Shown: one piece after another, positions 10,947 to 41,594 of the stretch
Layout of the letters: the number at the start of each line of letters is the position of its first letter
How positions within the stretch are numbered: the first letter of the stretch is position 1
Source: Acidobacteriota bacterium
GTDB taxonomy: Bacteria > Acidobacteriota > Blastocatellia > UBA7656
NCBI GenBank assembly: GCA_031389065.1
Contig: JANMSG010001169.1
Span: forward strand, 1-48,516
Length of the DNA: 48,516 nucleotides
Reading direction: 5' to 3'
Notes under the pieces: model-generated
Database searches by the model: none
Told to the model about the DNA's origin: nothing
Seen by the model: the letters and a program-made list of their open reading frames with translations, nothing else
Made by a program: the position numbers and the translations under genes

Positions 10947-11720
10947 TTAATCGCCGCTCGTCTTTACGACGGAACGTTCTTTGGAAGGGATTGTGACTTC
11001 GCCGAAAAGAATGTCTGTCAAGCCAAGCCCTTCGCGGCGGTCTATGTCGCGCTCAATCGTCTGAATCTTCACATTATGCTGCTGAATCTGCGTAGCTATC
11101 TTAACCAAATCAGCCGAGCGCATATCTTTGAGTTGCGATTGGAAATTCACCAACTGCGCTTTCATATCCTCTTTTTGCAGCTGTTCGTTTTTGGCTATCT
11201 CTGCGCTCACTTCGGTCATCAAGTCGGCGCGAATCTGTTCAAGTTGTTCTCTGCTGAGTGTCACAGACACAGCCTCTGTACCGCCTGTTGTTGCGCCTTT
11301 AATGTTCACACCCGCTGGTGCGTCTTTGCGCAATAAATCTGCGTGATATGAAACTCCGTCTTTACCAATCTTGATGTCCGTCCCAAGCACTGCAAGTATA
11401 AGCATAGCCGCTGCGACTGCGCCCAGTCCTTTTGCCCAAAGCGGCATAATCGTGAACAACTCTTTGAGCAGAGCCAGCGCCGATTTGCGAGGTTGTGCGG
11501 CGGTTTCTGCAACCAATCGCACATTCGGCACTTCGTCAAACTGCCATTGTTGCAAAGACTCGCGCACGCCCTCGAAAGCCGAAAGCTCTTGTCTGCATGA
11601 AGCGCACTCAATCAAATGCGACTCGAATCGCAGGCTCTCTTGCGGTGCTGTTTCGCCATAAAGGTAGGTGACGAGCAACTCGTGCATCTTGCAATTTGGG
11701 GTATTATTTTGTTGAGTCAT
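10947..11720 (-). CDS. anti-sigma factor (zf-HC2 type) with one TM helix and an extracytoplasmic coiled coil
   Basis: N-terminal H-x3-C-x2-C motif (HLIECASCRQEL). TM helix LGAVAAAMLILAVLG. Located downstream of the ECF sigma gene. Confidence 0.7.
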   Translation of the reverse strand: MTQQNNTPNCKMHELLVTYLYGETAPQESLRFESHLIECASCRQELSAFEGVRESLQQWQFDEVPNVRLVAETAAQPRKSALALLKELFTIMPLWAKGLGAVAAAMLILAVLGTDIKIGKDGVSYHADLLRKDAPAGVNIKGATTGGTEAVSVTLSREQLEQIRADLMTEVSAEIAKNEQLQKEDMKAQLVNFQSQLKDMRSADLVKIATQIQQHNVKIQTIERDIDRREGLGLTDILFGEVTIPSKERSVVKTSGD

Positions 11721-11829: not shown

Positions 11830-12441
11830 TCATACAGCTTCGCGTAAATGTGCGAGCCGTTTTTTCAATTCCGTCAACCCTGTATACATTCTGGTTTTCA
11901 CGGTTGACAGTGGTATGCTCAGAATTTCTGCAATTTCGTTAAACTTCAAACCCTCGTATTCCTTCATGATGATAACCTGCCGCATTTCCGCCGGCAGACC
12001 TTGCAAAGCGCGTCGAACATGAATGGTGATCTGCTCCTGCTGGATGTTGCTGCTCAGGTCGTGTTCGTCTGCGGCTAGTTCAAATCCATGTATCTCGTAC
12101 TCCTCTTCAATCGAAAGCATGAATTTGTTGCGGCCTCTGAGCTTGGTGTTACAGATATTCAGAGCAATTCTATAAATCCAGGATGAAAACTTGGCGTCGC
12201 CTCTGAATTTCGACAGATTGCGATACGCCGATAAAAAAGTCTCTTGAGTCGCGTCTTTCGCTTCTTCGTCGCGCCCCAGCATTCTGAGCGTCAAGCCATA
12301 GATATGACGCTCCCAGCGGCGCACAAGAACATTGAATGCTTCCGGCTCTCCGCCTAACGTGCGCTCAATAATTTGCGTATCATTTAAATCCAAGTTACAC
12401 TCGCGCCACCACTGAAAATTGAATCCCCATCCGTACAGCAT
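11830..12441 (-). CDS. ECF-type RNA polymerase sigma-70 family factor
   Basis: Region 2 (FNVLVRRWERHIYGLTLRMLGRDEEAKDATQETFLSAYRNL) and region 4 (EYEGLKFNEIAEILSIPLSTVKTRMYTGL). The true start may be internal to the ORF. Confidence 0.85.
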   Translation of the reverse strand: MLYGWGFNFQWWRECNLDLNDTQIIERTLGGEPEAFNVLVRRWERHIYGLTLRMLGRDEEAKDATQETFLSAYRNLSKFRGDAKFSSWIYRIALNICNTKLRGRNKFMLSIEEEYEIHGFELAADEHDLSSNIQQEQITIHVRRALQGLPAEMRQVIIMKEYEGLKFNEIAEILSIPLSTVKTRMYTGLTELKKRLAHLREAV

Positions 12442-13703: not shown

Positions 13704-14864
13704 TCAATCCACTTCCTTTTGCAAACGCGACAAACGAAATCTGTCTACTTGATATTTGCTCTTTCCTTCAAGCAATAATTCTGCGGCAAGGCGACCCATG
13801 AGAGGACCGAATTTGAAGCCGTGACCTGAAAAACCTGTTGCCAGCAAAACTCTCTCAAAATCAGGATGCCAATCAATAATAAAATCTTCGTCGGGCGAGT
13901 TGTTATAAATGCAGACATGACTTTTTGTGACGCGAGCGTCGGCAAGCGCGGGGATCACGCGAGCAAAAAACTCGCGGCATTTTTCTATAAATTCATCGCC
14001 GACTTTTTCATCGAAAGCGTAAGGGTCAATGGTTTCGCCTCTCAGGTGATTGCCTACCTTCATCGCTCCATTGTGAGGAATCGGAAAGCCGTAAAACCCC
14101 GAATCCATCTCTATGAAGATAGGGAATTCGCCGATGTCAAAATTCGTTTTAGAATGATTGGCAGACTTTCTGTTTTCCATCACAGGCTCAAAGTAAACGA
14201 CCTCTTGTCGCGTAGTCGTGAGTAGACTGGCGAAATCAGGGAGCAATTTTCGCGTCCAGGGACCTGAGGCAATCAACACTTTTTCACAGGTCCATTCGCT
14301 CCCGGTTTGGCTGCGAATCAACGTCCCTCTGGCGTTTGGCTCTATGGCAACGACGCGCTCATTTTCAAAAACATCTGCGCCGAACTTCTGCGCCAGATTG
14401 ATTGATACTTGCACAGCTTTGTCAGCATAAAGCACCCCGCCGCTCGGATCGAAAACCGCGAAAGGAATCGCATCTTTGTTGAACTGTGGAAATCGCTCGG
14501 CAATTTCTTCCCCATTGAGCATCTCCGCTTCCAGCCCAAGCGAGTGCAATGCCTCATAAGTCTGCGTTTCAAACGAGTCTGCTTTGTTGCCTAACATCAA
14601 GAGTCCCGCCTCATCAAGCAAGCGCCTTCCCACTGCTTCTTCAAGCGCACGCCATAGCGCCAGAGCGTCAACAGCCATTTGCACATAAAGCGGGTCGGGA
14701 TAAGCGAAGCGAAAAATTTTTGAATAATCTACGGATGCGCCTTGTGGGTTGGGCAAAGATGCTTGATCAATCAACGCGACACTTGCGCCCCTGCGAGCCA
14801 ATTCGTAAGCCGCAGACGCGCCCATGATTCCTGACCCAATGATTGCCACATCGTAAATTTTCAT
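13704..14864 (-). CDS. FAD-dependent oxidoreductase (DAO family, monomeric sarcosine oxidase / N-methyltryptophan oxidase-like)
   Basis: MKIYDVAIIGSGIMGASAAYELARRG dinucleotide fold. C-terminal GFSGHGFKFGPLMG. Start set at ATG 14864; the ORF is open to 14933. Confidence 0.85.
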   Translation of the reverse strand: MKIYDVAIIGSGIMGASAAYELARRGASVALIDQASLPNPQGASVDYSKIFRFAYPDPLYVQMAVDALALWRALEEAVGRRLLDEAGLLMLGNKADSFETQTYEALHSLGLEAEMLNGEEIAERFPQFNKDAIPFAVFDPSGGVLYADKAVQVSINLAQKFGADVFENERVVAIEPNARGTLIRSQTGSEWTCEKVLIASGPWTRKLLPDFASLLTTTRQEVVYFEPVMENRKSANHSKTNFDIGEFPIFIEMDSGFYGFPIPHNGAMKVGNHLRGETIDPYAFDEKVGDEFIEKCREFFARVIPALADARVTKSHVCIYNNSPDEDFIIDWHPDFERVLLATGFSGHGFKFGPLMGRLAAELLLEGKSKYQVDRFRLSRLQKEVD

Positions 14865-15045
14865 AACGGCGATAAGTATGAACGAAGATGAGTTATTTTT
14901 GAACCGGACTGGCGCGACGCAACATAACTTCATCGTTTATGAAACGCTAGCGGCTATTCTTAAACTGACATCATGATAGAATCATTGCGGCTTTGGGCTG
15001 CTCTATAAAATCGTCTTGTTTGTGATTATACATTGAGATAAAACG

Positions 15046-16983
15046 ATGAAAAAAATTCTTGCCTTAGCGTTTTGTTTAGCCTTTATACACTCGGCATTTT
15101 CGATTTTCGCCCAAAGTGCGACCACGCCGCAGAGTAACACGACAAAGCCGATCCATTGGCTTGAGCAGGTTACCTCGCGCGCCGATTTTGACAGGCTTTC
15201 GCGCACCTATTATCGAGGTCGTTTTTACGCCCTGCCGCACATGATGTTCGTCATAGACCGGCGCGCAAAAGACCGTGTCTATTATGTGAACTCAAAAGCC
15301 TATGCGTTTCATAAAGATTTTGTGAACGCGGAATATTTATCACTTGAGCGCGGCAAAGTTTTTTACGAAAACAACTATGCAAATAAAGACAGAAGATTTT
15401 TTCTCGGCACCATTTCATATCAAACAACACTTGATAAATTCACTTTTGAATTTTGGGAAGGCGACAGATTATCGAAAGAATTGCTGACCCAGTGCTATGA
15501 CGCTTTGCGCAAAAGTTTTTTCACAGAGATTTTTTTCAAGCCCAACTCTTTAATTCAAGAAGAAGTTGCAAAAGATATGAACAACGCTTCGGTGAATCGC
15601 CTGGCTGTTATCACCGCAAGCGACCTTGCGAGCAATCAACAATATCAACCGCTCAACCTGGGCGCCAATGTAGGGCAACTTCGCATACTCGAACGCCTGA
15701 CGCCAGAGACAGTGATTGACCGCAATCAAATCGTCATCTTCAAAGAAGTGCCGATTCAACTGACGCCGCTTTCAGGCATTATCACGACCGAAGCCGCATC
15801 GCCGCTATCGCACGTCAATATTCTGGCGAAATCCTGGGGCATTCCGAATGCGCGAATCGCCAACGCCGATAAGCTTTTCAAAGAACTCGAAGGCAAGTAC
15901 GTCCGTCTGGAAATCAACGAGAATGAATACAAACTTCTGCCAGCCAATGCCAAAGAGGTCGAAGCGCGCAATCGTGAATTTATCAAACGCTCTGATTTAG
16001 TCACGCCACCTGCCGACCTGAGTTATGAAAAGCTCACAAATTTGCAAGATCAACGAAAGGCAGACGCAAAACGATTCGGCGCAAAAGCCGCGAATTTAGG
16101 CGAGATGATTAACGCCCACAATCCTAAAATAGTTGTGCCGAAAGGCTTTTCGATTCCCTTTATTCATTACAAAACTTTCTTGATCATCAACAAACTCGAA
16201 GATAAAATCGCCAACGCTGTTGAAGAAGACCGCTTCGTTCACGATCCAGTTTATCGCAAGAAGCGACTCGCAGAAATTCGCCAATGGATTCAACAAGGTA
16301 GGCTCGAAGTTGGCTTTAAAAAAATGCTTGAAGGCAAGGCTTTTGATTTAGGTTTACGCAAAGGCTTGTTTGTGCGAAGTTCCACGAATGCCGAAGACTT
16401 ACCAAATTTTAGTGGCGCGGGACTTTATACAACGGTGCCGAATGTTCGCAATTATGAGCAGCTTTACGAAGCGGTGAAAACCGTCTGGGCTTCGCTTTGG
16501 AATTATGAAGCATACGAAGCGCGCGACAGTTTCGGTATGAATCATTTCGGCGCTTATCCTTCGGTGTTGGTTCAAGAGGGAATTGATGCCGAAAGCGCCG
16601 GTGTGGCGATTACAACAGACCCATTCAATCGCGCCAACAAAGGCGCTGTTTACATCAACGCCAAACGCGGGCTTGGCATGAAAGTCGTCGAAGGTCGCAG
16701 AATTGCAGAGCAAGCTCTGTACACGCCAAGCTCAAATTCAATCAAAGTTTTAACGCGCTCGGATGAAGATACAATGTTGAAGTTCGATGAAAACGGCGGT
16801 GTGAAAGAATTGAAAATTGAACAGCATCGCGCTGTGTTGACAGATGACATGATACGACGGTTGGCTCGCGCGGCGCTGCAAATTAAACGCATCTTCGGCG
16901 GGCGCGATCAAGACATCGAATGGGTTTATGCAAAAGGCCAGCTGTACATCGTTCAATCGCGACCTTATGTTGAAAATAATTAG
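15046..16983 (+). CDS. PEP-utilising-enzyme family phosphotransferase: N-terminal signal peptide, unknown N-domain, swivel phospho-His domain, C-terminal PPDK_N ATP-grasp domain
   Basis: Signal-like MKKILALAFCLAFIHSAFSIFAQ. Swivel motif LSGIITTEAASPLSHVNILAKSWGIPNA (His256, nt 15811-15813). PPDK_N motifs FGAKAANLGEM, VRSSTNAEDLPNFSGAG and DIEWVYAKGQLYIVQSRP. Confidence 0.75.
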   Translation: MKKILALAFCLAFIHSAFSIFAQSATTPQSNTTKPIHWLEQVTSRADFDRLSRTYYRGRFYALPHMMFVIDRRAKDRVYYVNSKAYAFHKDFVNAEYLSLERGKVFYENNYANKDRRFFLGTISYQTTLDKFTFEFWEGDRLSKELLTQCYDALRKSFFTEIFFKPNSLIQEEVAKDMNNASVNRLAVITASDLASNQQYQPLNLGANVGQLRILERLTPETVIDRNQIVIFKEVPIQLTPLSGIITTEAASPLSHVNILAKSWGIPNARIANADKLFKELEGKYVRLEINENEYKLLPANAKEVEARNREFIKRSDLVTPPADLSYEKLTNLQDQRKADAKRFGAKAANLGEMINAHNPKIVVPKGFSIPFIHYKTFLIINKLEDKIANAVEEDRFVHDPVYRKKRLAEIRQWIQQGRLEVGFKKMLEGKAFDLGLRKGLFVRSSTNAEDLPNFSGAGLYTTVPNVRNYEQLYEAVKTVWASLWNYEAYEARDSFGMNHFGAYPSVLVQEGIDAESAGVAITTDPFNRANKGAVYINAKRGLGMKVVEGRRIAEQALYTPSSNSIKVLTRSDEDTMLKFDENGGVKELKIEQHRAVLTDDMIRRLARAALQIKRIFGGRDQDIEWVYAKGQLYIVQSRPYVENN

Positions 16984-17010
16984 CTGACGAAACATTTTCA
17001 ATCTCTCAAA

Positions 17011-20000
17011 ATGAAAACAGGCACAAAACGACAAGTTCATTCAAGAGTTTTTCGATTCGCTCTCGGATCATTCATTTTCGTCATTACAAGCTACGTTGCC
17101 ATTTACAGCAGCGCGCATCAAACGCCTGTGCCTCAAGTTAACACAGCTTCGGTGATAGGGTTTGTGCAAGACGACAAAGGCGCGCCTTTAGAGAAAGTCA
17201 GCGTAACGATTTCGTCGCCAAATTTCTCTGCCTCTGCGTTCACTACGGCTGATGGCAAATTCGAGTTTAAGAATCTGGCGCCAGCGAAATATTTCATCAC
17301 CGCACAAGCCGCCCGCTTCCGAAAAACGCAAACGGCCATCACCATCACCAAGCCCGATGATATCGTGCCGCCCATCACGATTAAGCTCGCGGCATCTTCG
17401 CTACACGTAGCCGTGTATGACGCAAACAATCAATCGTTAGGTGGCGTGATGGTTTCGCTCTATTCGCAAGACAGCGCAACCTCCGGCAATCCCACAGCGC
17501 GAACCGTCACAGATAAAAATGGCGACGCGTATTTCGGGAGGCTTGCGCCCAGCTCTTACACGCTCACGGCGGTCTTGCGCGGCTATGACGAATACCGGAA
17601 TCAGGTTTTTATTTCCTCTGATATCACGACAGACTTTGCGCTACAACTTCTGGTTGCGCCGGTTATTCCAATTAACACGAAAGCCATCGCGCGTTACAGC
17701 ATTCCAAATCTCCCTGCAAAAAATGTTCGCGCGATTTTTCAAGACAGCGAAGGCTGGATGTGGTTCGGCACAGATAAAGGGCTGGCGCGATTCAACGGCG
17801 CGGAGTTCAAATCATCAGCAACCACAGGCTCCGCTTATGCGCGTTTGGCAAACGAAGACGTGCGCTCGATTGCAGAAGACCAAAACGGCCGCATATGGAT
17901 TGCCACACCAGGCGGCGTGAAGCGAATCACCAAAGAAGGCGTGGAAGACGGACAATGGCTGAGTGGCGTTGAGGCACGAAACATCGCTGTTGATGCGGGC
18001 GGCAACGTGTGGGTTGCGACGGCATCGGGCGTTTTCAAATTCGACGGCAAAGATTTAGAAGCGTTTGATGAATCTCGCGGTCTGCCATCAAACGATGTAA
18101 GAGCAATCGCCATTGATAAAAGCGGCAAGGTTTGGATTGCTACAGCAAAAGGCGTGGCCATCCTCGCAGATAATAAAATCCATTTGCTTGAGCCGAAACG
18201 CGACGTTTCCACAGACAATGCCGAACCCTTATCTGTTCAACCAAAACCTGCATCACAGACTGCTACGCAAAAAAAATCAACAGCTTCGCAAACGGTGACA
18301 AATACGGCTCAACAACCTTCGCAGGCTTCTACAGCGAACCCAATGGCGCTTGCAAAAGTAAATGATTTGGACGATGTTCAAAACCTATTTATAGACAAGG
18401 CTGGCGGCGTTTGGCTGGCAACCAACAAAGGCGCGATTTTTATTGAGGCAAACCATACGAACACTTTTGATTTATCGCAGGCGCAAGTAGCCAATGGCTT
18501 GTCCATTCGCGCCATCAGTCAAGACATCGCAGGGCGTATGTGGTTTGCGCTCACAGAGGGCGGCGCGCTGATTTACGATCCCTCAACTCGCGACTCGCAA
18601 CGCATCAGCCTGTTAGAGCAGGATCACATTGCGGCAATCTCAAACGAGCGCGAAGGGTATTTATGGTTCGCTACAGACAATGGCGCAGTCTATGCAGACT
18701 TCTATAGCTTTATCCTTTTCACGACCAGTCGCGGTCTCTCCGACAATGACGTGCATGCGGTTATTGAAGACTCCAGCGCAACAACCGCACAGGCTCATGG
18801 CAACCTCTGGTGCGTCACCTCAACAGGCGCATCGCGTATGCAGGATGAGCGATTCGTTCCTATCGAACGATTCCGCACCAACATCCATATACGCGGCGTT
18901 GCTTTCGACAACACGGGCGCGGCTTGGGTGGCAACAGACCAAGGCGCAATTAAATTCAGCGGAAAAACTTTAGCGCAATTCAGCGAAGGCAACGGCTTGG
19001 CTTCAAACAACATTCGTTATGTGGCGAGCCTTGCAAAAGGCGCGGCGATGGTCTTCGCTACCTCGAAAGGCGCAAGCATCTTTGAGAACGGAGTGTTTCG
19101 CAAGCTCGATGGTTTGGACGGCTACGACGCGCGACAGATATTTGAAGACACGGACGGGCGTTTGTGGTTTGCTACCTCTCGCGGTGTGATGGTTTACAAT
19201 CGGAAAACGGATGTGGCAAAGCTTATTGATACCTCGCGTGGACTCATTGATAATGACACTCGTTGGATCACTCGATACAACGGTGAATTGTTGATAGCCA
19301 CACGCGCCGGTGTGCAAATTTATAATGAGCGACAACAAAGCGCCTCGTCGTTTGACAGCGAACCGGCGAACACAATTTTTGTTGATAGAGACAATTTTTT
19401 GTGGGTAGGGACGGATAACGGGCAGCTCAAAAAAATCGCTGCCGTTCAAAGTCACATTGTTTCGAGCATCTATTCGGGCGAGATTCATTCGCTGACTGCC
19501 AATCGAATCAATTCCATCTCCGAAGACAACGATGGTCATATTTGGATCGCTACGGATAAAGGCGTAGTTCGCCATACACCGATCCGCACAACTCCTTCGA
19601 TTCAAGTGTCGCTCAAAGTCGAAGGTCGTTCGGAAGCGGATTCAGGCTCAGGCAGGGTTGAACTTCCCAACGGACGACAACGCGTTACCTTTCGTCTGAC
19701 AGGCGTAAGCATGAGCAAGCCCGTGCAATATCTTTATCGTATCAACCCGGAAGGCGGAAACGAACGTTGGGAATTGCTGCCTGTTCAAACGGGGCTTGAG
19801 CGGGAGATCCCGTTTTTTGAATTCACTGAAGGCGTGAACACTTTTGAAGTCATGGCGCTCAATCGTGATTTGTATGGAGGGCTGGCGCCGAGCGCTGCGA
19901 TTACCATTTATGTAAACCCGCCGTTTTATAAGAAGTGGTGGTTTTATTTATTCGGGCTTCTCGTCGCAGGATCGGCTACCACAGCCTTTTTCGTGGTTCG

Positions 20001-21201
20001 CAAGAAAAATCAGCGCGAGTATGTTCTGCCGAAAGAGTTGCGCGAGTTCGTGCCTATCGAACCCAATCCCTACATTGTCGGCAATCCCATACGCACGGAA
20101 AAAATGTTCTACGGACGAGAAGACGATTTTCGTTACGTGCAAACCAAGCTCGAAGGCGCGTCGCAAGGCGTGGTCATCGTCTTTTGCGGCGAGCGCAGAG
20201 TCGGCAAGAGTTCGATTCTCTTTCAAGTGATGAACGGTAGATTGGGCGAGCGCTTCGTTCCGGTCTTCGTCGATATGCAAGAGATGGTCATCACTTCGGA
20301 CGCCGAGTTCTTCGCGCGCATCTCACGTTTGATCGTCGAATCGTTAGCGCGGAAAAACATCAAAGTCACTGCGCCTCAATTTCACGAAGGAAATCCTTAT
20401 CATATCTTCTTAGATTTTCTCGATGAAGTGTTGGCGGCGATAGAAGACCGAACGCTTTTGATATTGATGGACGAGTACGAGTTGATGGAATCGAAGGTAG
20501 ATGAAGGAAAGATTTCGCAAGAATTTTTTACCTTCTTAGCCGGCTTGATGGACAACAGAGAGCGTCTGGCGATTATCTTCACAGGTTCGCGGCGCCTCGA
20601 GGAGCGCGATAAAAAATATTGGCGCGACCTGTTGCGCCGCTCGCTGTTTCGCAAGGTCGGTTTCTTATCCGGCAAAGACACCCTGCGCCTCATCACAGAC
20701 CCTGTCGAAGGTCGCGTAGTTTACGGGCGCGGCGCGATTGAAGCGATTTGCAGATTGACGGCGGGACAGCCCTTTTATACGCAGGTCACCTGTCAAAACA
20801 TTGTTGATTATATGAACGAACACGAGCAGAACTATATTACGCTCGCAGACCTGCAGCATGTCACTGCAGACATCACAGACAACCCTCTGCCGCAGATGAT
20901 TTACACCTGGGACGCGCTTTCGGATGATGAGAAATTGGTGATGTCTTTGCTCGCTGATGCTCTGCCTGACGGTAACGATTTCGCCACCGCATACGATTTG
21001 CGAGTGGTTGTGAAAGCGAACGAATATCCTGTGAATTTATCTGAAACAACCATTCGCATGACGCTTGAAGAGATGTTCCGCCGCGAGTTGCTGGATAAAA
21101 ATGCCAGCGAGGGTTTCCGAATCAAAATAGATTTGTTCCGATTATGGATTCGCCGCTCACATTCCATCTGGCAAGTAGTCAAAGAAGTGCGAACGCTTTA
21201 A
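17011..21201 (+). CDS. transmembrane sensor: 2x CarboxypepD_reg + about 14 Reg_prop propeller blades + Y_Y_Y domain + TM helix + cytoplasmic Arch/ORC-type AAA NTPase with wHTH
   Basis: N-terminal anchor FALGSFIFVITSYVAIY. Repeated blade motif (e.g. VRAIFQDSEGWMWFGTDKGLARF, VRSIAEDQNGRIWIATPGGV). Y_Y_Y region around VQYLYRINPEGGNERWE. TM helix WWFYLFGLLVAGSATTAFFVV (aa 976-996). NPYIVGNPI...FYGREDDF (aa 1019 onward). Walker A GERRVGKSS (nt 20188-20214). Walker B LLILMDEYE. Confidence 0.8.
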   Translation: MKTGTKRQVHSRVFRFALGSFIFVITSYVAIYSSAHQTPVPQVNTASVIGFVQDDKGAPLEKVSVTISSPNFSASAFTTADGKFEFKNLAPAKYFITAQAARFRKTQTAITITKPDDIVPPITIKLAASSLHVAVYDANNQSLGGVMVSLYSQDSATSGNPTARTVTDKNGDAYFGRLAPSSYTLTAVLRGYDEYRNQVFISSDITTDFALQLLVAPVIPINTKAIARYSIPNLPAKNVRAIFQDSEGWMWFGTDKGLARFNGAEFKSSATTGSAYARLANEDVRSIAEDQNGRIWIATPGGVKRITKEGVEDGQWLSGVEARNIAVDAGGNVWVATASGVFKFDGKDLEAFDESRGLPSNDVRAIAIDKSGKVWIATAKGVAILADNKIHLLEPKRDVSTDNAEPLSVQPKPASQTATQKKSTASQTVTNTAQQPSQASTANPMALAKVNDLDDVQNLFIDKAGGVWLATNKGAIFIEANHTNTFDLSQAQVANGLSIRAISQDIAGRMWFALTEGGALIYDPSTRDSQRISLLEQDHIAAISNEREGYLWFATDNGAVYADFYSFILFTTSRGLSDNDVHAVIEDSSATTAQAHGNLWCVTSTGASRMQDERFVPIERFRTNIHIRGVAFDNTGAAWVATDQGAIKFSGKTLAQFSEGNGLASNNIRYVASLAKGAAMVFATSKGASIFENGVFRKLDGLDGYDARQIFEDTDGRLWFATSRGVMVYNRKTDVAKLIDTSRGLIDNDTRWITRYNGELLIATRAGVQIYNERQQSASSFDSEPANTIFVDRDNFLWVGTDNGQLKKIAAVQSHIVSSIYSGEIHSLTANRINSISEDNDGHIWIATDKGVVRHTPIRTTPSIQVSLKVEGRSEADSGSGRVELPNGRQRVTFRLTGVSMSKPVQYLYRINPEGGNERWELLPVQTGLEREIPFFEFTEGVNTFEVMALNRDLYGGLAPSAAITIYVNPPFYKKWWFYLFGLLVAGSATTAFFVVRKKNQREYVLPKELREFVPIEPNPYIVGNPIRTEKMFYGREDDFRYVQTKLEGASQGVVIVFCGERRVGKSSILFQVMNGRLGERFVPVFVDMQEMVITSDAEFFARISRLIVESLARKNIKVTAPQFHEGNPYHIFLDFLDEVLAAIEDRTLLILMDEYELMESKVDEGKISQEFFTFLAGLMDNRERLAIIFTGSRRLEERDKKYWRDLLRRSLFRKVGFLSGKDTLRLITDPVEGRVVYGRGAIEAICRLTAGQPFYTQVTCQNIVDYMNEHEQNYITLADLQHVTADITDNPLPQMIYTWDALSDDEKLVMSLLADALPDGNDFATAYDLRVVVKANEYPVNLSETTIRMTLEEMFRRELLDKNASEGFRIKIDLFRLWIRRSHSIWQVVKEVRTL

Positions 21202-21257
21202 AGTATATAAACTCAGGTAGAAATGACATCAAAGAAATTGAGATAGTAAAAAAATAG

Positions 21258-23198
21258 ATGCATCGTAATCCTTATCTAAACCGTGTTGCTATTAAAGACC
21301 CGGCGCAGTTCTTCGGACGCGCGCGCGAAGTCTCAAAAATATTTTCCCGCATCGGCGCGTCGCGTCCGCAATCTATTTCCGTTGTTGGCGAACGGCGCAT
21401 AGGAAAATCGTCGCTTCTTTACTACCTCAACCATCCGCAAATTCGCGCCAAGTATCTCGATAAATCCGAAGATTACATATTCGTCTTCATAGACCTTCAG
21501 CAAAAACGCAAACTCAGGCTCACAGAGTTTTTTCAGGAGTTGTTTGCCTTAATTGCCAAAGAGATAAACGATGAGAAAATTACCTTGCTTGAACCAAGTT
21601 TCGATTCCTTGCGCGGCTTGCTCGAAAATTTTAGAAGCGAAGGGCGCAAACTCATCGTCCTGTTCGATGAATTCGATGTCATCACAACCAACCGCGCCTT
21701 CGATCTGGAGTTCTACTCATTCCTGCGCTCGATTGCAAATAACTACGACGTGGCGTATGTGACAAGTTCTGCGCGTGACTTGCAAGAGCTCTGCTACACG
21801 CAACTTATAGCCGATTCCCCTTTCTTTAATATCTTTACAAATGTTTTTTTGCGGGCTTTTTCGCGCAAAGAAGCTCTCGATTTAATTGTGGTTCCGTCAG
21901 TTCAAGAGGGCTTGCCGCTGGAAAATTATACGCGGCGAATTATGGAACTTGCCGGTCACTTTCCTTACTTTTTGCAAATCGCTTGCTCGGCTTACTTCGA
22001 TCATCTTTTGGAAAACGACGGCAAACTCAATCGTGAAGAGGTCGAAGACAATTTTCTCGATGAAGCCAAAGGACAATTCAGGTTCATCTGGGACAAAATG
22101 AGCGAAGGGCAACGCCGCGCCATTCGCAGCTTCGTTGAAAGTAACAAAGCTGAAAAAGAGCAAGCACATATTTTTGAAGATCTAAAACGCGCCGGTTATT
22201 TTCTCGAAGACGAGCGCGGGACTCGTTTGTTCTCTACCAAATTCTCTTCCGTGATTTCGCGCCCGCGAATGATTACTACGGAATTGCGTGACACAGACCG
22301 CGCCGCCATGGCTGTACATGACGGTAAGACGGAAAAAGTCGCTGCGCCGCCTTTGATTGAACCTCACGGACACATTGGCAGATTCGATATTCATCGTTCA
22401 TTAGGCGCGGGCGGAATGGGTGAAATTTTTGAAGCGTACGACACGGAACTTCAACGCACGGTCGCCATCAAAGTCCTGGTCTCAAAGTTTGTAGAAAATG
22501 AAACCATGAAGCAGCGGTTTTTGCGGGAAGCGCGCATGGCTTCGCAACTCAATCATCCGAATATCGCTACGATTTACGAGATCGGCGAGGCCGCTGGTAA
22601 TCCTTATATTGTTATGGAATGTGTTGAAGGCGAAACGCTCAATGACAAAATAAACAACGGCCCGATTGAGTTGAAAGATATCTTGGAAATCGGCGAGCAG
22701 ATCGCTGACGCGCTCGCCGAAGCGCACGAACACGGCGTCGTTCATCGCGACATCAAATCCGCGAACATCATGATTACGACTCGCGGAAAAGTGAAGGTGT
22801 TGGATTTCGGTTTGGCCAAACCTCTGCCTCTTTCGAGCGAGCGCAAGAATAAAACGAAGCTAACGGAATCCGGCGTGTTGCTTGGCACTGTGAGTTACAT
22901 GTCACCCGAACAAGCGACAGGGCAAGGAGATGTCTCGCATCTTTCGGATATTTTTTCGCTCGGTGTAGTGCTTTATGAAATGCTAACGGGGAGCTTGCCG
23001 TTTGAAGGCGACACTTATTTCCAAACCATTCAGGCGATAAACAAACGCACTCCGGTTTCGATAAAAAAACTTCGTAAAGACGCGCCCGCATCTTTGATTG
23101 CGATTATCGAACGTATGCTGAAAAAATCTCCGTCAGAGCGTTACCAGGCGGCATCAGAAATCGCGCGCGATTTGCGCAAAGTGGCTAGTGAAAGCTGA
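21258..23198 (+). CDS. Arch/ORC-type AAA NTPase-wHTH fused to a Hanks-type Ser/Thr protein kinase
   Basis: NPYLNRVAI...FFGRAREV. Walker A GERRIGKSS (from nt 21387). Walker B LIVLFDEFD. Kinase motifs: GAGGMGEIF, AIKVL, HRDIKSANIM (from nt 22743), DFGLAK, SPEQ. 56 nt downstream of the previous gene. Confidence 0.85.
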   Translation: MHRNPYLNRVAIKDPAQFFGRAREVSKIFSRIGASRPQSISVVGERRIGKSSLLYYLNHPQIRAKYLDKSEDYIFVFIDLQQKRKLRLTEFFQELFALIAKEINDEKITLLEPSFDSLRGLLENFRSEGRKLIVLFDEFDVITTNRAFDLEFYSFLRSIANNYDVAYVTSSARDLQELCYTQLIADSPFFNIFTNVFLRAFSRKEALDLIVVPSVQEGLPLENYTRRIMELAGHFPYFLQIACSAYFDHLLENDGKLNREEVEDNFLDEAKGQFRFIWDKMSEGQRRAIRSFVESNKAEKEQAHIFEDLKRAGYFLEDERGTRLFSTKFSSVISRPRMITTELRDTDRAAMAVHDGKTEKVAAPPLIEPHGHIGRFDIHRSLGAGGMGEIFEAYDTELQRTVAIKVLVSKFVENETMKQRFLREARMASQLNHPNIATIYEIGEAAGNPYIVMECVEGETLNDKINNGPIELKDILEIGEQIADALAEAHEHGVVHRDIKSANIMITTRGKVKVLDFGLAKPLPLSSERKNKTKLTESGVLLGTVSYMSPEQATGQGDVSHLSDIFSLGVVLYEMLTGSLPFEGDTYFQTIQAINKRTPVSIKKLRKDAPASLIAIIERMLKKSPSERYQAASEIARDLRKVASES

Positions 23199-23244
23199 AT
23201 GGAAATCTCAAAAGGCTACCCTCAACTTCATAAGAAGTATTTGA

Positions 23245-23931
23245 TTATCCCTTTGGTTCTATTAAATAATCCTCGCGCTTTGTTGAACTGATTGAAATGT
23301 CATCTGCGTGGCGAGACTCACGTGTAAACATCAAAAAACCGACTCCCATAATCACCAATACGAGCAAAATGACGATGACCAAAAAGTACCAGGGAAATTG
23401 TTGCTCATTCGTAGTCGCTGTGCCGGAGCCTTCAAAAGAAAACATGACAAAAGGACCGATTACCGCGCCCATCAATCCGACTAACAGGGCGATGCGGTCG
23501 AACTGCCCTTCTTGCGGAGCCTGCACGCGCCAACCTATATAAGTGCCAGCCATCGAAGCCACCATCGCAAAAATGACGTAAAGAAAACTTTGTCCAGTGA
23601 TGGAGATGCGCCCTGCCGAATCATTGAGCCAGTTCATCGCCAGATAATTGCTGCTTCCCGCCGACACAAGCAGTAAGAGAAGCGAGTTGAGAAGGATTGT
23701 CGCCATCGCCACGATTGCCGAATCGAGGAGGCGAATCTTTTCGCTCATTAATCCGATAATAAAACCGCCGACAAGAAAGGCACCGAGCGTCAGCCCGAAA
23801 ACCAAAACGAGGAGGATGCCTTGTGGGGATTGAGTCTTTCCGAGAAGCAGATTTGCAATAAGCGAAATCGTGGCTTGAATCCCGAAGGTGAAAACAAGCC
23901 CTAAAAGCATCCATTTCATTCGATGCTTCAT
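23245..23931 (-). CDS. hypothetical polytopic membrane protein
   Basis: 228-aa ORF with about 6 hydrophobic helices. No family recognised. Convergent with the kinase gene. Confidence 0.55.
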   Translation of the reverse strand: MKHRMKWMLLGLVFTFGIQATISLIANLLLGKTQSPQGILLVLVFGLTLGAFLVGGFIIGLMSEKIRLLDSAIVAMATILLNSLLLLLVSAGSSNYLAMNWLNDSAGRISITGQSFLYVIFAMVASMAGTYIGWRVQAPQEGQFDRIALLVGLMGAVIGPFVMFSFEGSGTATTNEQQFPWYFLVIVILLVLVIMGVGFLMFTRESRHADDISISSTKREDYLIEPKG

Positions 23932-37747: not shown

Positions 37748-37888
37748 AAGCAGTAGGCAGTAAGCAGTAAGCAGTAGGCAGTTGAAATAGCAGGCAATCG
37801 AAAGAGAAGATAGATAATTGAGTAAACAGCAAGCGATATTTTACCCCTCTCTCGCTTACTGCCTACTGCTTACTGCTTACTGCTTACT
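37748..37888. repeat. inverted heptamer-array element B
   Basis: Left arm 37748-37782, 71-nt spacer, right arm 37854-37888. The right arm overlaps the GT2 stop codon (37884-37886). The left arm ends 16 nt upstream of the M28 ATG. Confidence 0.9.
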
Positions 37889-39800
37889 CTGTTTTAACGC
37901 GGCGCAATTTTGGCGCAATCGCCATCACGCTCGCGTAAGCGTAACCAAAAAAATAGATCAGCAAAAATGGAATCGTTCCGAAAATCTGGCTTTTAATCGC
38001 GTACCAAATCGTGAATATGAAATAGAGCGCGAAGACAATTTCAAGCCAGGGCAAAGACCAGCGCCGCGCCGCATAATTCTTCTTGACCCAACTCTTATCT
38101 TTACCCTCTTCGATACGATACTTGGGTGTTCGCACAAACTCAGACTTGTGACCGATCAACGCTTCAAACACCGCGCGGGCGTTAGAGAAAGTCAGCGCAA
38201 TCCCCATGCTCATAGCAAACGGAATGTATTTCAAGAGTCGCTTCCAGCTGGTCGGATGCAGATAAATTTGCGGCACTAAAAAGTACGCGATAACCGAGAC
38301 GGTTGAAAAAGTCAGGATCGGCAAATCGAGAACGAAGAGATGAAAAAGACCTTGATTGTAGCGCACAATCAGGATCGGCAAGTTGACCAACGCAAGAATG
38401 ATAACCAGAGGCGCAGCCAGATTACCTGTCAAGCGGAAGAACTGTTCGAATTTGACTTGCAACGATAAACGAGGATCTTTCCGAATACGCTTCATCAACT
38501 TGATGCCGACTTGCACAACGCCTTTCGCCCAACGTTTCTGCTGCGATTTGAAAGCGTTGATGTCAACAGGCAGTTCTGCCGGCACGTCTTCGTCCATCAA
38601 ATAAACGAAATGCCAGCCCATCAACTGAGCGCGATACGAGAGGTCTGTGTCTTCTGCGAGGGTGTCGTGTTGCCAGCCACCTGACCATTCGATGGCTTCG
38701 CGTCGCCACATTCCGGCTGTGCCGTTGAAGTTAAAGAAACCGCCGCAGCGGTTGCGCGCCGTCTGTTCGATGACGAAATGCGCGTCGAGCATAATGGATT
38801 GCACTTTGGTGAGCAACGAATAATCGGCGTTGAGATGGCTCCAACGCATCTGCACCATGCCGACGCGCTCCTCCGTGAAGAAATCAACCATCTTGCGAGC
38901 GCAATCGGGATGCGGCACAAAGTCCGCATCAAATATCAAAATCAGTTCGCCTGATGATTTCTTTAAACCTTCTTCAAGCGCGCCTGCCTTGTAGCCTGAG
39001 CGGTTGGCGCGATGATGATAAACAATGTCGAAGCCTTGATCGAAATACTTCTTCACAGCGCTTTGCGCAATCTCCACAGTGTCGTCCGTCGAATCATCAA
39101 GAACTTGAATTTCGAGCAAGCCGCGCGGGTAATCAATCTTCGTGACGGCTTCAATCAAGCGCTCCGAAACATACATTTCGTTGTAGAGCGGAAGTTGAAC
39201 GGTGATGCGTGGCAGGCGATCATCTGAAAAACGCGCTTTCGGTTGCGGTGGATATTTTTTATAACGCAGGAAAAGATAGATCATTCGAAAGCGATACACA
39301 CCATAGCAAGAGAGCAATCCGAGAATGCCAAAATAGATAATCATCAAATAATTATCCAAAGCATCATTGAGATTGAGATAGCTGATATTGCCTGCAGGAT
39401 AGGCGCCACCGTTACTTTCCATGGAAGCGATCATTTTATCTACAGCGACATTGCCCGTCGGTCTGGTTTCAAGTGCGAGCAATTCTGTTTCTGTAAGCAT
39501 GCCTGCTTCTAACGTGACATTGCCGAGGATGAGTTCGATGTTTTGCGCTTGAGAGATGAGCGTATATTTGCCCGGTTCAAGAGTATCGAATACGAATTTG
39601 CCCTGGTCATTGGCTATGGCGTTGGTCTCTTGCTCTGTCGCTTGATTGCGAGCAACGACCGTCAAGCCATACATAATATACCCACGCGGGTCCTTGATTT
39701 CGCCGCGCAGCGAACCCGTGGTTGCCGCTACAGCAGCGATTGATAAAAGAGAAATCAATAAAATCGCGTTCAATAATTTCATAATAAATTTTCTATACAA
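37884..39800 (-). CDS. family-2 processive glycosyltransferase (CslA/cellulose-synthase-like) with N-terminal CarboxypepD_reg domain
   Basis: N-terminal signal/anchor plus LRGEIKDPRGYIMYGLTVVARN...GKFVFDTLEPGKYTLIS. GT2 motifs LPLYNE, VLDDSTD, FDADF, EDTDLS, QQKRWAKG (QxxRW). Multiple C-terminal TM helices. Confidence 0.85.
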   Translation of the reverse strand: MYRKFIMKLLNAILLISLLSIAAVAATTGSLRGEIKDPRGYIMYGLTVVARNQATEQETNAIANDQGKFVFDTLEPGKYTLISQAQNIELILGNVTLEAGMLTETELLALETRPTGNVAVDKMIASMESNGGAYPAGNISYLNLNDALDNYLMIIYFGILGLLSCYGVYRFRMIYLFLRYKKYPPQPKARFSDDRLPRITVQLPLYNEMYVSERLIEAVTKIDYPRGLLEIQVLDDSTDDTVEIAQSAVKKYFDQGFDIVYHHRANRSGYKAGALEEGLKKSSGELILIFDADFVPHPDCARKMVDFFTEERVGMVQMRWSHLNADYSLLTKVQSIMLDAHFVIEQTARNRCGGFFNFNGTAGMWRREAIEWSGGWQHDTLAEDTDLSYRAQLMGWHFVYLMDEDVPAELPVDINAFKSQQKRWAKGVVQVGIKLMKRIRKDPRLSLQVKFEQFFRLTGNLAAPLVIILALVNLPILIVRYNQGLFHLFVLDLPILTFSTVSVIAYFLVPQIYLHPTSWKRLLKYIPFAMSMGIALTFSNARAVFEALIGHKSEFVRTPKYRIEEGKDKSWVKKNYAARRWSLPWLEIVFALYFIFTIWYAIKSQIFGTIPFLLIYFFGYAYASVMAIAPKLRRVKTE

Positions 39801-40034
39801 AAAACCGGGCGTTGGATGTTACTGGTAACCAGATTGTTGTATGAGTCAAGCCGAAAGTATAGGGGCGCGAGACAGGGATTTCAAGACCTTCTCGGGTGCT
39901 TGCCTTACAGCCATGAAAGCCTTATTCTAGGCGCTAATCTAATATTTTTTTTGAGTTGCTTTGCGCTCTCACACTCAATAACACCTGGCGCGACTTGCTT
40001 AACGGCTCAGGCTCAAAAAAACCGCGGAGGCTTG

Positions 40035-41594
40035 ATGAACAAATCAAAACAACTCTTTATCGTTCTCTTCTGGATAAGTGCCCTTGTCTTTCTGTCTTTG
40101 TCAGGGTCAAGCACGCAGACCAAGAGAACTCTGTCGCAGAAGACCGTGGAGCCTTCGCGTCGAATCGTTGCGCCGAAAATTTGGGATGCCAAGGCGTTAG
40201 CCAACTGGGCTACGCCGATTAACGGTGTAAATGCAACGCCAAATTATCTCAGCGAAGACGAATACTATGCAGCGCCTGTTGATAATCTGCGAACCTATGC
40301 GGTCTATCATCCCGACTACGAGCCGAAAGGTTATCAAGAGTGGGTAAAGAAGCAAGGCGCGCAGCCCTTAATTGAACCTGAAAAACTCAAGACCGAAAGA
40401 GATTGGATAGAAGCGGGTCGCCGCGTTTTTGAAGAGTTTGATGTGCCGGTTGTGCGAACCAGTGATCCTCGCGTTTTTGCCTACCTGCAAGACCGCTTGG
40501 CGATGAAACGAGACGGTAACGTCACCAAAGAGGGCGTGATTGCTGGTGTTCGATGGGTCGTGGAAAAAAACGGGGAGGTCAAGTTGGCATTATCCGAGTG
40601 TGCGGCTTGTCATACACGCTTGATGGATGACGGCTCAGTCATTCGCGGCGCACAGGGCAATCTCAACTTGGGCTCTCAAATCATCGGCTACCTGGTTGAA
40701 GGCTTCGCAAAGAACAATGAAAAATTGGGCGTATCGTTGGCACAAAGCGAATATGGCGCTTATGGCGTGCCTTGGATTAAAGACGATATTCACGAGCGCT
40801 TCAAAAAAATGAGCGAAGAAGAGATCGGCACTGTCGATGGCCCGCCGCTTCCCGGCACGTTTCCCAGATTCAATGGCAGCCCTTACTACATCACGAAAAT
40901 TCCAGACCTCATAGGCGTCAAAGACCGTCGCTATCTTGACCATACGGGAACCCATCTGAACCGCGGTTCCAAAGACATCGCCCGTTACGGCGCATTGGTG
41001 GGGTATGCGGAAGACGGTGCCATCGGTCATTATAAATTCCTTACAGAGGAACAGCGTCGTTTGTCATTTCGTCTGAGCGATGAAGCTCTCTATGCGCTTG
41101 GCAAATATATCTATGCGCTAGAGCCGCCGCCAAATCCCAACAAACCCAACTCGCTCACAGCGCGAGGCAAAAAGGTCTTTGAGCAGGAAGGTTGCACCAT
41201 GTGTCACGCGCCGCCACACTACACCAACAATATGCTTATGCCAGTTGACGGATTCACACCCCCCAAAGATGATCCGGCAACTGAGCGACTCCACATTCTG
41301 CGAGGCGTTCGCCTCGGAACCGATCCAAATCTGGCTTTGAAGACGCGAAAAGGAACAGGCTATTACAAAGTTCCTTCGCTCAAAGGGCTTTGGTATCGCA
41401 GCTTACTTGAGCATTCGGGGTCCATCGCTTCTCTTGAAGATTGGTTGGGTAAAAAGCGCTTGCGAGATGATTACGAGCCAAGCGGCTGGAAAGGTCCTGG
41501 CATAAAAACACGCGCCGTGAAGGGACACGAATTCGGGCTTGAGCTTTCAATAGCAGATAAAAATGCACTCATCGCGTTTCTAAAAACTCTTTAG
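40035..41594 (+). CDS. putative di-heme c-type cytochrome (CCP/MauG-like), exported
   Basis: Two CxxCH motifs (CAACH, CTMCH). Start set at ATG 40035 (MNKSKQLFIVLFWISALVFLSL, GGAGG upstream). The ORF is open from 39816. Confidence 0.65.
   Translation: MNKSKQLFIVLFWISALVFLSLSGSSTQTKRTLSQKTVEPSRRIVAPKIWDAKALANWATPINGVNATPNYLSEDEYYAAPVDNLRTYAVYHPDYEPKGYQEWVKKQGAQPLIEPEKLKTERDWIEAGRRVFEEFDVPVVRTSDPRVFAYLQDRLAMKRDGNVTKEGVIAGVRWVVEKNGEVKLALSECAACHTRLMDDGSVIRGAQGNLNLGSQIIGYLVEGFAKNNEKLGVSLAQSEYGAYGVPWIKDDIHERFKKMSEEEIGTVDGPPLPGTFPRFNGSPYYITKIPDLIGVKDRRYLDHTGTHLNRGSKDIARYGALVGYAEDGAIGHYKFLTEEQRRLSFRLSDEALYALGKYIYALEPPPNPNKPNSLTARGKKVFEQEGCTMCHAPPHYTNNMLMPVDGFTPPKDDPATERLHILRGVRLGTDPNLALKTRKGTGYYKVPSLKGLWYRSLLEHSGSIASLEDWLGKKRLRDDYEPSGWKGPGIKTRAVKGHEFGLELSIADKNALIAFLKTL

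Follow-up and report, generated by a model that had tools for sequence, protein, structure and literature searches.

We analysed a stretch of 48,516 nucleotides (nt) of DNA (the window) from an Acidobacteriota bacterium of the Blastocatellia (contig JANMSG010001169.1) and describe here one of its genes, at 17011..21201 on the + strand. It encodes a membrane receptor whose ectodomain resembles that of the sugar-sensing hybrid two-component system (HTCS) sensors of gut Bacteroides and whose cytoplasmic part is a STAND/AAA+-type nucleoside triphosphatase (NTPase). The adjoining downstream gene, which we call the partner, encodes a Hanks-type Ser/Thr kinase with a paralogous NTPase fused to it. 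The receptor belongs to a family of membrane receptors, widespread and unannotated, that have an NTPase transmitter and a conserved NTPase-enzyme partner, and the findings point to a widespread, unstudied bacterial route of passing signals across the membrane. It is possible, and we put it forward tentatively, that these systems form a previously unrecognised class of transmembrane signalling, in which a single-pass or polytopic receptor would have a STAND/AAA+ transmitter, and no histidine kinase, methyl-accepting domain or enzyme fused directly to it, and would act by templated co-oligomerisation with a soluble helper NTPase carrying a Ser/Thr kinase or a cyclase. By analogy, such a class would be a prokaryotic, membrane-spanning counterpart of the sensor/helper pairs of NLR proteins. 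What is new here is that a STAND-type switch and sensor/helper pairing are joined to a standard extracytoplasmic sensor.

The receptor has the ectodomain of an HTCS sensor

A hydropathy scan (Kyte-Doolittle, window 19) of the predicted protein found two hydrophobic segments and no more, one at residues 13-34, preceded by the basic N-terminal stretch MKTGTKRQVHSR, and one at residues 977-996. Therefore residues ~35-976 are placed on the extracellular side of the membrane and residues ~997-1396 in the cytoplasm. Such a topology is usual for periplasmic sensors, and the protein is a type-I-like inner-membrane receptor. The gene and the parts of it that encode the ectodomain and the membrane segments are as follows.

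17011..21201, + strand: receptor gene (1396 residues, ATG start), with HTCS-like ectodomain, one transmembrane helix and cytoplasmic STAND/AAA+-type NTPase
17047..17112, + strand: N-terminal hydrophobic segment, signal anchor or signal peptide, residues 13-34 (hydropathy scan)
17152..17610, + strand: two CarboxypepD_reg/prealbumin-like beta-sandwich domains, residues 48-117 and ~129-200 (Pfam PF13620, E 1.5e-20, two stretches)
17686..18186, + strand: propeller blades 1-4, residues ~226-392 (Reg_prop matches and AlphaFold strand pattern)
18202..18348, + strand: disordered, A/T/Q/S/P-rich insertion inside propeller 1, residues 398-446 (predicted local distance difference test (pLDDT) <50, composition)
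18376..19575, + strand: propeller blades 5-14, residues ~456-855 (AlphaFold model, Foldseek, PDB sequence match)
19597..19914, + strand: Ig-like Y_Y_Y-type beta-sandwich, residues ~863-968, containing YLYRINPEGGNERW (structure model and HTCS structural alignment)
19939..19998, + strand: transmembrane helix, residues 977-996, followed by RKKNQRE (hydropathy scan)

The Reg_prop repeats were recognised by Pfam (E 1e-44), and the SpaA and Big_1 models also matched residues 129-192, in the second beta-sandwich. An AlphaFold model of the ectodomain, built on an alignment of 34 orthologues (pLDDT 86, predicted TM-score (pTM) 0.84), contains four 4-stranded blades, the disordered insertion, ten further blades and then the beta-sandwich. 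Since four and ten blades around a disordered insert make 14, the model gives two 7-bladed propellers, i.e. the standard 7 + 7 arrangement of HTCS sensors with a disordered insertion in propeller 1; the low-complexity sequence of this insertion varies between orthologues. When residues 211-976 were compared with the PDB by sequence, they matched 3v9f at E 3.7e-40 and also 4a2l and 3ott. Over ~835 columns, the whole ectodomain model was aligned by Foldseek with the periplasmic domains of BT4663 (E 1e-35), BT4673 and BT3049 (TM-score 0.54), and PorZ came next. The Ig-like sandwich is supported by the structure model, by the HTCS structural match and by Pfam matches to Y_Y_Y in homologues (e.g. 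P0019, P0020 and P0133).

An earlier note on this DNA, made from the sequence alone, had described an ORF (open reading frame) with one transmembrane helix, an extracytoplasmic propeller, two CarboxypepD_reg domains in front of it and a Ser/Thr/Gln-rich linker that divides the blades into 4 + 10. The ORF of 1396 residues and the helix were confirmed, the hydropathy topology and the matches to HTCS periplasmic domains agree on the location of the propeller, Pfam finds both CarboxypepD_reg domains within residues 48-200, and the linker is seen as the low-pLDDT segment of the model. The note had also named the sensor as Reg_prop plus Y_Y_Y. The first half of that name stands, and an Ig-like fold is predicted where the second was expected, but the Pfam Y_Y_Y model itself does not match the receptor even at E<=10.

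The cytoplasmic module is a P-loop NTPase with a lid and a winged helix

HisKA, HATPase_c, receiver, HTH (helix-turn-helix) and HTH_18/AraC domains were all absent from the Pfam matches of the receptor, and NCBIfam added nothing relevant. In an AlphaFold model of the cytoplasmic module (alignment of 32 homologues, pLDDT 90.9, pTM 0.84), an alpha/beta P-loop core is followed by a helical lid and then by a winged helix, with which the chain terminates at residue 1396. The model fills all 400 residues and therefore leaves no room for a hidden kinase domain. Pfam, NCBIfam and the model together thus rule out a histidine kinase or other standard output within residues 997-1396, in agreement with the earlier note, which had seen no HisKA/HATPase_c after the transmembrane helix. 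The module starts ~22 residues past this helix and has the following parts.

20065..20130, + strand: juxtamembrane motif NPYIVGNPI...MFYGRE, common to the receptor and partner NTPase families
20107..20733, + strand: P-loop NTPase core, residues 1033-1241 (conservation, model, Foldseek)
20188-20214, + strand: Walker A, GERRVGKSS, residues 1060-1068
20470-20481, + strand: Walker B, DEYE, residues 1154-1157 (LMDEYE, residues 1152-1157)
20578-20607, + strand: sensor-1 strand FTGS and invariant R1199 (homologue alignment)
20734..20913, + strand: helical lid with GxP-type motif AGQPFYTQ, residues 1251-1258 (helices in the model; invariant G256, F259, Y260, T261 and Q262)
20914..21198, + strand: C-terminal winged-helix domain, residues 1302-1396, with conserved tail W..HS.W (helix/hairpin pattern, full-length alignment with ORC2/Cdc6)

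In a conservation alignment of 32 diverse homologues (41-79% identity) the invariant elements were NPY..G.P...MF.GR, G.RR.GK.S, DEYE, FTGS followed by R1199, GQPFYTQ and P.PQM. The two halves of the juxtamembrane motif lie at residues 1019-1027 (NPYIVGNPI) and 1033-1040 (FYGREDDF) of the receptor; its invariant module columns are N23, P24, G28, P30, M36, F37, G39 and R40, and it aligns with NPYLNRV..FFGR of the partner. Both of these segments and the Walker A sequence GERRVGKSS had been pointed out in the earlier note, and all three are present and conserved in the family.

As membership criteria we used the definition of STAND NTPases that reportedly goes back to Leipe and co-workers in 2004. 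The Walker A (GxxxxGK[ST]) and Walker B (hhhhD[DE]) motifs are present in the receptor and invariant both in the 32 homologues and in a set of 42. A helical GxP domain and a winged helix follow the NTPase core in the predicted structure (pLDDT >90), together with the invariant AGQPFYTQ. The tripartite STAND layout, with effector, NTPase and C-terminal TPR, WD40 or leucine-rich repeat (LRR) sensor in one cytosolic protein, is not that of the receptor: its chain has no further domain past the winged helix, its sensor lies at the N-terminus and outside the cytoplasm, and a separate protein carries the effector.

Searched alone against Pfam, the cytoplasmic module scored barely over the cutoff with AAA_14 and AAA_22 and under it with ATPase_2, nSTAND2 and nSTAND1; a search of the PDB by sequence gave nothing beyond a chance Rab match (E 0.69). 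With the model, the best Foldseek E-values were obtained for archaeal ORC2/Cdc6 and eukaryotic ORC/Cdc6 subunits (E 4e-12 to 1e-10) and the best TM-score for the Pyrococcus Walker ATPase PABY2304 (2qen, TM-score 0.58/0.64), and the plant NLRs NRC3 and WRR4A were matched at E 2e-8. What places the module among the STAND NTPases is its homology, via the partner, to Pfam nSTAND2; its fold, taken by itself, is just as much that of an ORC/Cdc6-like AAA+ protein. As modelled, it looks like an apparently active nucleotide switch of the STAND or ORC/Cdc6 kind that replaces a histidine-kinase transmitter.

The adjoining gene encodes a paralogous NTPase fused to a kinase

The partner gene and its two domains are:

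21258..23198, + strand: partner gene (646 residues), starting 56 nt past the receptor gene, nSTAND2 NTPase plus Hanks-type Ser/Thr kinase
21258-22292, + strand: partner nSTAND2 NTPase, residues 1-345, Walker A GERRIGKSS, Walker B DEFD (Pfam nSTAND2, E 1.2e-67)
Residues 369-646 of the same gene, + strand: Hanks-type Ser/Thr kinase with VAIK, HRD and DFG motifs kept (Pfam Pkinase, E 2.8e-54)

The partner sequence opens with NPYLNRVAI...FFGR...GERRIGKSS. Judged by its motifs the kinase is apparently active, and the protein has no sensor domain of its own. BLASTP aligned the receptor module with the partner NTPase over 305 residues (25% identity, E 6e-20), and the profiles of the two, compared with hhalign, matched over 277 columns (probability 99.7%, E 2.3e-25), including the shared N-terminal motif NPY..FxGR. 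By these comparisons the cytoplasmic module of the receptor is a paralogue of the partner NTPase, and the nucleotide-binding motifs (Walker A and B) are intact in both. Because the adjoining gene encodes a Ser/Thr kinase joined to a paralogue of this module, we read the NTPase of the receptor as probably a transmitter and not the final output. The earlier note, which had overlooked the partner gene, had assigned it the part of an AAA/STAND-type output; the NTPase is borne out by the model and the motifs, but its role as final output is not, and it probably transmits to the partner kinase.

The receptor and its partner are encoded side by side in several phyla

We scanned species-representative genomes for receptor loci, calling ORFs and classifying them with phmmer. 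Of the non-redundant loci obtained, 68 included 2.5 kb or more of DNA downstream of the receptor, and at 57 of these, in several phyla, a partner of the nSTAND2 type lay downstream on the same strand. Where the receptor was not of the Reg_prop type, a partner was downstream at 14 of 15 loci (Calditrichota, Glassbacteria, Gemmatimonadales and others). The gaps between receptor and partner were mostly between -57 and +150 nt and included overlapping stop and start codons. Fused to the nSTAND2 module of the partner was a kinase, at either terminus, a cyclase, or a kinase plus a cyclase. In the reverse direction, metagenome contigs were scanned from the partner NTPase; of 42 loci that reached far enough upstream, 25 had a receptor directly upstream and 3 had one elsewhere in the locus. 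Overall, the system is spread over Acidobacteriota, Calditrichota, Gemmatimonadota, Glassbacteria, Eisenbacteria, Poribacteria, spirochaetes and other groups.

Among the individual loci, L007 (no receptor sensor recognised) and L008 (dCache_3-like sensor) each have an overlapping nSTAND2-kinase gene downstream. In L004, from a metagenome-assembled genome (MAG) of the FCB group, and in L006, from a spirochaete MAG, a PEGA receptor is followed by a secreted protein, a standalone nSTAND2 and a cyclase-nSTAND2. These belong to a set of PEGA-type four-gene systems, made up of a receptor, a secreted or PEGA protein, a standalone nSTAND2 of ~340-370 residues and an effector-nSTAND2 (cyclase or kinase plus cyclase); they are found at L004 (9006-12763), L006 (9098-12874) and L087 (8344-13149) and also at L088, L134 and L156. 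In the standalone nSTAND2 of these loci the NPY motif is missing and Walker B is of the DD type.

Further genes were seen between receptor and partner at some loci. In loci of the Glassbacteria and Gemmatimonadales type, a conserved 241-residue protein with an N-terminal signal-like segment, which may be a periplasmic accessory protein, is encoded between the receptor and the kinase-nSTAND2 (L078, 7199-7927; L079, 6562-7287; L080, 7192-7917; L086, 7192-7917). In some Blastocatellia a small gene pair (94 and ~103 residues), which we take to resemble a BrnT/BrnA-type toxin-antitoxin pair, is inserted at this place (L027, 7374-7950; L028, 7360-7930; L030, 7361-7940; L039, 6653-7229), and L002, L015 and L017 have a conserved ORF of 110 residues there. 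The terminus at which the partner carries its kinase did not correlate with the terminus at which the receptor carries its module; L078 is a counter-example.

The module is combined with many sensors

More than 120 protein clusters span the full length of the receptor (1337-1528 residues, 53-100% identity), and proteins of this full-length architecture are orthologues that occur across the Blastocatellia. MAGs of Chloracidobacterium (L018, L069) contain relatives too. These homologues are named "two-component regulator propeller domain-containing protein" by NCBI and "ligand-binding sensor domain/AAA+ ATPase" by JGI. Exhaustive HMMER searches with the module alone gave 1185 relatives at E<=1e-30, 4373 at E<=1e-10 and 7308 at E<=1e-3, counted as clusters at 50% identity. 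The layout of transmembrane helices was surveyed in the best 150 family representatives. With an N-terminal module, exactly one transmembrane helix followed the module after 5-25 residues in 85 of 90 proteins. With a C-terminal module, 1-2 helices preceded it in 26 cases and 7-10 in 8. Few members were free of transmembrane helices, and those were mostly short fragments.

In 42 diverse members Pfam identified Reg_prop, Y_Y_Y, PEGA, CarboxypepD_reg, PD40, Peripla_BP_6/ANF_receptor, TPR, FGE-sulfatase and Kelch domains as extracytoplasmic sensors, HAMP in two members, and ATPase_2 (PF01637) in 29. A receptor-type module with interchangeable sensors is how a signalling transmitter module behaves. 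One relative, P0379 (1214 residues), is a soluble single chain of Pkinase, FHA, TIR and receptor-type ATPase; it ties the receptor-type ATPase clade directly to kinases, in an architecture that is more like that of an immunity protein. Plasmid relatives of the module (22-25% identity) occurred only in Acinetobacter ursingii plasmids, e.g. NZ_MH220285.1 at 199686-200933 (hit H1), and the metagenomic homologue P0014 is named "type I restriction enzyme M protein" by JGI; distant relatives of the module may sit in restriction or defence contexts.

Some records carry unexpected taxonomic titles. Loci L019, L024, L036, L037, L043, L051, L053, L054, L060 and L061 (titled 'uncultured Clostridia bacterium') and L065 ('Actinomycetota') are 58-75% identical to the query module, and L078 lies in a record titled 'archaeon'; the whole set is 45-75% identical. 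Given enough DNA, these loci are syntenic with those of Blastocatellia or Glassbacteria, and the taxonomy in the record titles is probably wrong.

Neighbourhood of the receptor gene

The gene upstream of the receptor gene and a sigma/anti-sigma pair were located as follows.

15046..16983, + strand: upstream gene (645 residues), ending 27 nt before the receptor gene, permuted PEP-utiliser/PPDK_N-like, predicted exported
11830-12441, - strand: extracytoplasmic function (ECF) sigma factor, ~5 kb upstream of the receptor gene
10947-11720, - strand: zf-HC2 anti-sigma factor, ~5 kb upstream of the receptor gene

The upstream protein has a conserved Sec-type signal peptide, a weak match to a PEP-utiliser swivel domain at residues 241-283 with the conserved histidine motif ASPLSH(V/A)N.LA(K/R)SW.IP, and a PPDK_N ATP-grasp domain at residues 343-642 (Pfam). 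Compared with PEP synthase, its domains stand in a permuted order and there is no TIM-barrel domain. That an ATP-using dikinase-like enzyme is apparently exported is odd. The gene was rejected as a core component of the system, as it adjoins the receptor in some Blastocatellia loci only and is absent from all distant systems; it is possibly a lineage-specific operon member. Co-transcription of the upstream gene, the receptor and the partner is suggested only by the short gaps of 27 and 56 nt. A promoter and terminator scan of 14800-23500 gave counts equal to those of shuffled sequence and is therefore uninformative on operon structure.

The other neighbours are core-chromosome genes (GroEL, Pta, the ECF sigma/anti-sigma pair, FeoB, CCA/polyA polymerase and an aminoacyl-tRNA synthetase). 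Elsewhere in the window three other ORFs stood out, at 39816-41594 (+), 43074-46163 (+) and 37884-39800 (-): a 592-residue ORF without a Pfam match, a 1029-residue protein with TIG and two lamin-tail (LTD) domains, and a family-2 glycosyltransferase with an N-terminal CarboxypepD_reg domain.

Comparison with known systems

The receptor shares with the HTCS sensors BT4663, BT4673 and BT3049 a periplasmic twin 7-bladed Reg_prop propeller and a Y_Y_Y-type Ig domain, followed by a transmembrane helix. By this likeness it probably senses a soluble, oligosaccharide-like ligand as a dimer. Unlike them, it has a STAND/AAA+-type NTPase in the cytoplasm in place of HisKA, HATPase_c, receiver and AraC domains, and it adds two N-terminal CarboxypepD_reg domains and a 50-residue disordered insert in propeller 1. 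Because the transmitter, receiver and HTH domains are absent, the receptor is not an HTCS, although its ectodomain has the HTCS sensor fold.

Sensor/helper STAND pairs are known from animals (NAIP-NLRC4) and from plants (sensor NLRs with NRC helpers). As in these pairs, there are two paralogous NTPase modules here, one with a sensor and the other with an effector, and plant NLRs are among the fold matches of the receptor module, as described above. In contrast to them, the sensor module would be tethered to the membrane and read an extracytoplasmic domain, the domain fused to the helper is a Ser/Thr kinase or cyclase and not a CARD, coiled-coil (CC) or TIR domain, and there are no LRR, WD40 or TPR sensor repeats past the winged helix. 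PknK-like kinases of the MalT family and the mycobacterial cyclase-ATPase-TPR proteins are cytosolic STAND-kinase and STAND-cyclase regulators with C-terminal repeat sensors of their own. They resemble the partner in joining a Hanks-type kinase or class III cyclase to an NTPase switch, whereas the partner has no repeat sensors and adjoins a receptor with a paralogous NTPase. The best fold matches of the receptor module, the ATPase_2 protein PABY2304 (2qen) and ORC/Cdc6, share its NTPase core, lid and winged helix; they are soluble, and ORC/Cdc6 bind DNA, whereas the receptor module is membrane-tethered and has an acidic winged helix and a distinctive N-terminal motif, NPY..G.P..FxGRE.

A two-gene operon of adjoining nSTAND2-type genes, predicted to form a hetero-multimer with a variable effector on one module, has been described (Kaur et al. 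2021, PMC8195603, Fig. 6C). It is similar to the present pair in that two adjoining genes each encode a STAND module. In that operon, however, one module is eroded and has GT4 or HEPN, and the systems are mobile, cytosolic and mostly gammaproteobacterial, while the pair described here has Walker motifs in both modules, a kinase or cyclase as effector and a transmembrane receptor as one of its two proteins. Identity of the partner with the published nSTAND2 was considered and is unsupported for the one alignment sequence compared: the first sequence of nSTAND2.aln from that study had no Pfam match, PF20702 included, and reached a probability of 0.6% against the partner profile in hhalign. As this sequence does not match PF20702, the common name is no evidence of the same family, and the published operon is a conceptual precedent only. 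Kaur et al. (2020) reported transmembrane- and PEGA-linked components in the iSTAND and GAP1 systems and a membrane-associated "System 4", the proteins of which differ from the receptor and the partner; one of these systems is built on EACC1 and a caspase. In the open-access literature we found no description of a receptor-STAND paired with a STAND-kinase or STAND-cyclase. The earlier note had called the architecture unusual; it is common in metagenomes, and in that sense not rare, but in this literature it appears uncharacterised.

Proposed mechanism and alternatives

On balance we favour a mechanism, which goes beyond the anatomy, in which the receptor, as a transmembrane "sensor STAND", nucleates a soluble "helper STAND" whose enzyme is activated by proximity. 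Both Hanks kinases and class III cyclases become active on dimerisation or when brought close together. An extracellular ligand, by analogy with HTCS probably a glycan, would alter the geometry of the receptor dimer; for BT4663, a signalling motion across the membrane that resembles the closing of scissors has been proposed (Lowe et al. 2012, as cited in PMC8534201). The change in geometry would free the juxtamembrane NTPase into an ATP-bound, oligomerisation-competent state, and the tethered NTPase would then nucleate or co-assemble with the soluble helper NTPase-kinase through NTPase-NTPase contacts. In this way kinase domains would be clustered at the membrane, trans-autophosphorylate and become active, and ATP hydrolysis would reset the switch. 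In other lineages, the same receptor module could drive class III cyclases, for which dimerisation is needed, or kinase-cyclase fusions.

Several points weigh against this proposal. Every step past the anatomy, i.e. interaction, ATPase activity, oligomerisation and kinase activation, is inferred. The match of the receptor module to nSTAND2 is below the threshold (E 8e-4, 19.2 bits against a cutoff of 24), as is that to nSTAND1 (E 3e-3). Ten Blastocatellia loci and one other have no partner inside ~6 kb; these are mainly from one Blastocatellia subclade, in which the partner is 3-5 kb away (L056, L073) or outside the DNA scanned. Seen from the partner, 14 of the 42 loci have no receptor inside 7 kb (28 have one). 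In addition, the whole Blastocatellia region is syntenic (FeoAB, CCA/polyA polymerase, aminoacyl-tRNA synthetase). This synteny makes the pairing there weak evidence, and therefore the argument rests on the distant loci. Finally, the extra genes of the PEGA-type loci (standalone nSTAND2 and secreted protein) are unexplained by a two-protein model.

Could the two genes instead be a conflict or defence system, in which phage, a competitor or envelope damage is detected at the surface and the kinase or cyclase shuts the cell down, as in Avs- or NLR-like systems or those of two nSTAND2 genes? We regard this as unlikely. It is true that STAND NTPases, notably the Pfam nSTAND families, were defined in predicted conflict systems (PMC8195603; PMC7159879) and that the partner kinase domain scores strongly against the PADLOC kinase models PD-T4-6, mad6 and MkoA, but the PADLOC matches of the partner are confined to the generic kinase domain (residues 370-645) and the receptor module has no significant match there. 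Relatives with TIR and FHA (P0379) or an FGE-sulfatase domain, the toxin-antitoxin-like pairs inserted in some loci and a distant relative that is found on Acinetobacter plasmids under an N-6 DNA methylase annotation would fit with defence as well. Nevertheless, there was no match in the phage collection searched and just three remote ones among 72,556 plasmids, and the Blastocatellia gene is a conserved orthologue that occurs once per locus in a housekeeping neighbourhood; the receptor-partner system does not look mobile. Moreover, the effectors are signalling enzymes (kinase, cyclase) and not nucleases, proteases or NADases, and the sensors are typical of nutrient or envelope sensing (HTCS-type, periplasmic binding protein (PBP), HAMP).

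It is also improbable that the receptor works alone, as a membrane-tethered nucleotide switch that binds DNA or another client in the manner of ToxR/CadC or MalT, with the nSTAND2-kinase as an independent cytosolic regulator that is no more than a paralogue. The module does end in a winged helix, its nearest solved structures are the DNA-binding initiators ORC and Cdc6, and ~16% of receptor loci lack an adjoining partner, as about one third of partner loci lack an adjoining receptor. However, the winged helix is mildly acidic (isoelectric point 5.4, family median 6.1) and in the commonest architecture it lies just 5-25 residues from the transmembrane helix, which is awkward for DNA binding; from its charge and its closeness to the membrane, DNA binding is disfavoured. 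Furthermore, the partner has no sensor domain of its own, and the pairing holds across phyla, sensor types and effector types, often with overlapping genes. Least probable of all, we think, is signalling from the inside out, in which the cytoplasmic ATPase, possibly phosphorylated by the kinase, would reshape or cluster a structural or adhesive ectodomain (propellers, PEGA). Many members do have PEGA, CarboxypepD_reg, TPR or PD40 domains, which are often structural or associated with the envelope, but the closest relatives of the ectodomain, by structure and by sequence, are bona fide ligand sensors (HTCS), the members with PBP, ANF_receptor or HAMP domains favour outside-in signalling, and a single transmembrane helix is a poor transmitter of ATP-driven mechanical work.

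Implications

Bacteria usually transmit signals across the membrane with histidine kinases, chemoreceptors, receptor Ser/Thr kinases, anti-sigma factors, or fused cyclases or diguanylate cyclases. If the sensor/helper mechanism is true, a STAND-like ATPase transmitter would be added to these types, in a large receptor family (~1,200 clusters at 50% identity, E<=1e-30) that is concentrated in poorly studied soil and sediment phyla and whose annotation ("two-component regulator propeller domain-containing protein", "PEGA domain-containing protein") overlooks the ATPase. Systems with a cyclase lend themselves to a simple genetic readout (cAMP in E. coli cya-), and with ectodomains that can be exchanged the module is of interest for receptor engineering. 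The proposed mechanism would also mean that the oligomerisation logic of STAND and NLR proteins reaches beyond cytosolic sensing and immunity and is coupled to extracytoplasmic ligand sensors, and that a division of labour between sensor and helper arose in bacteria.

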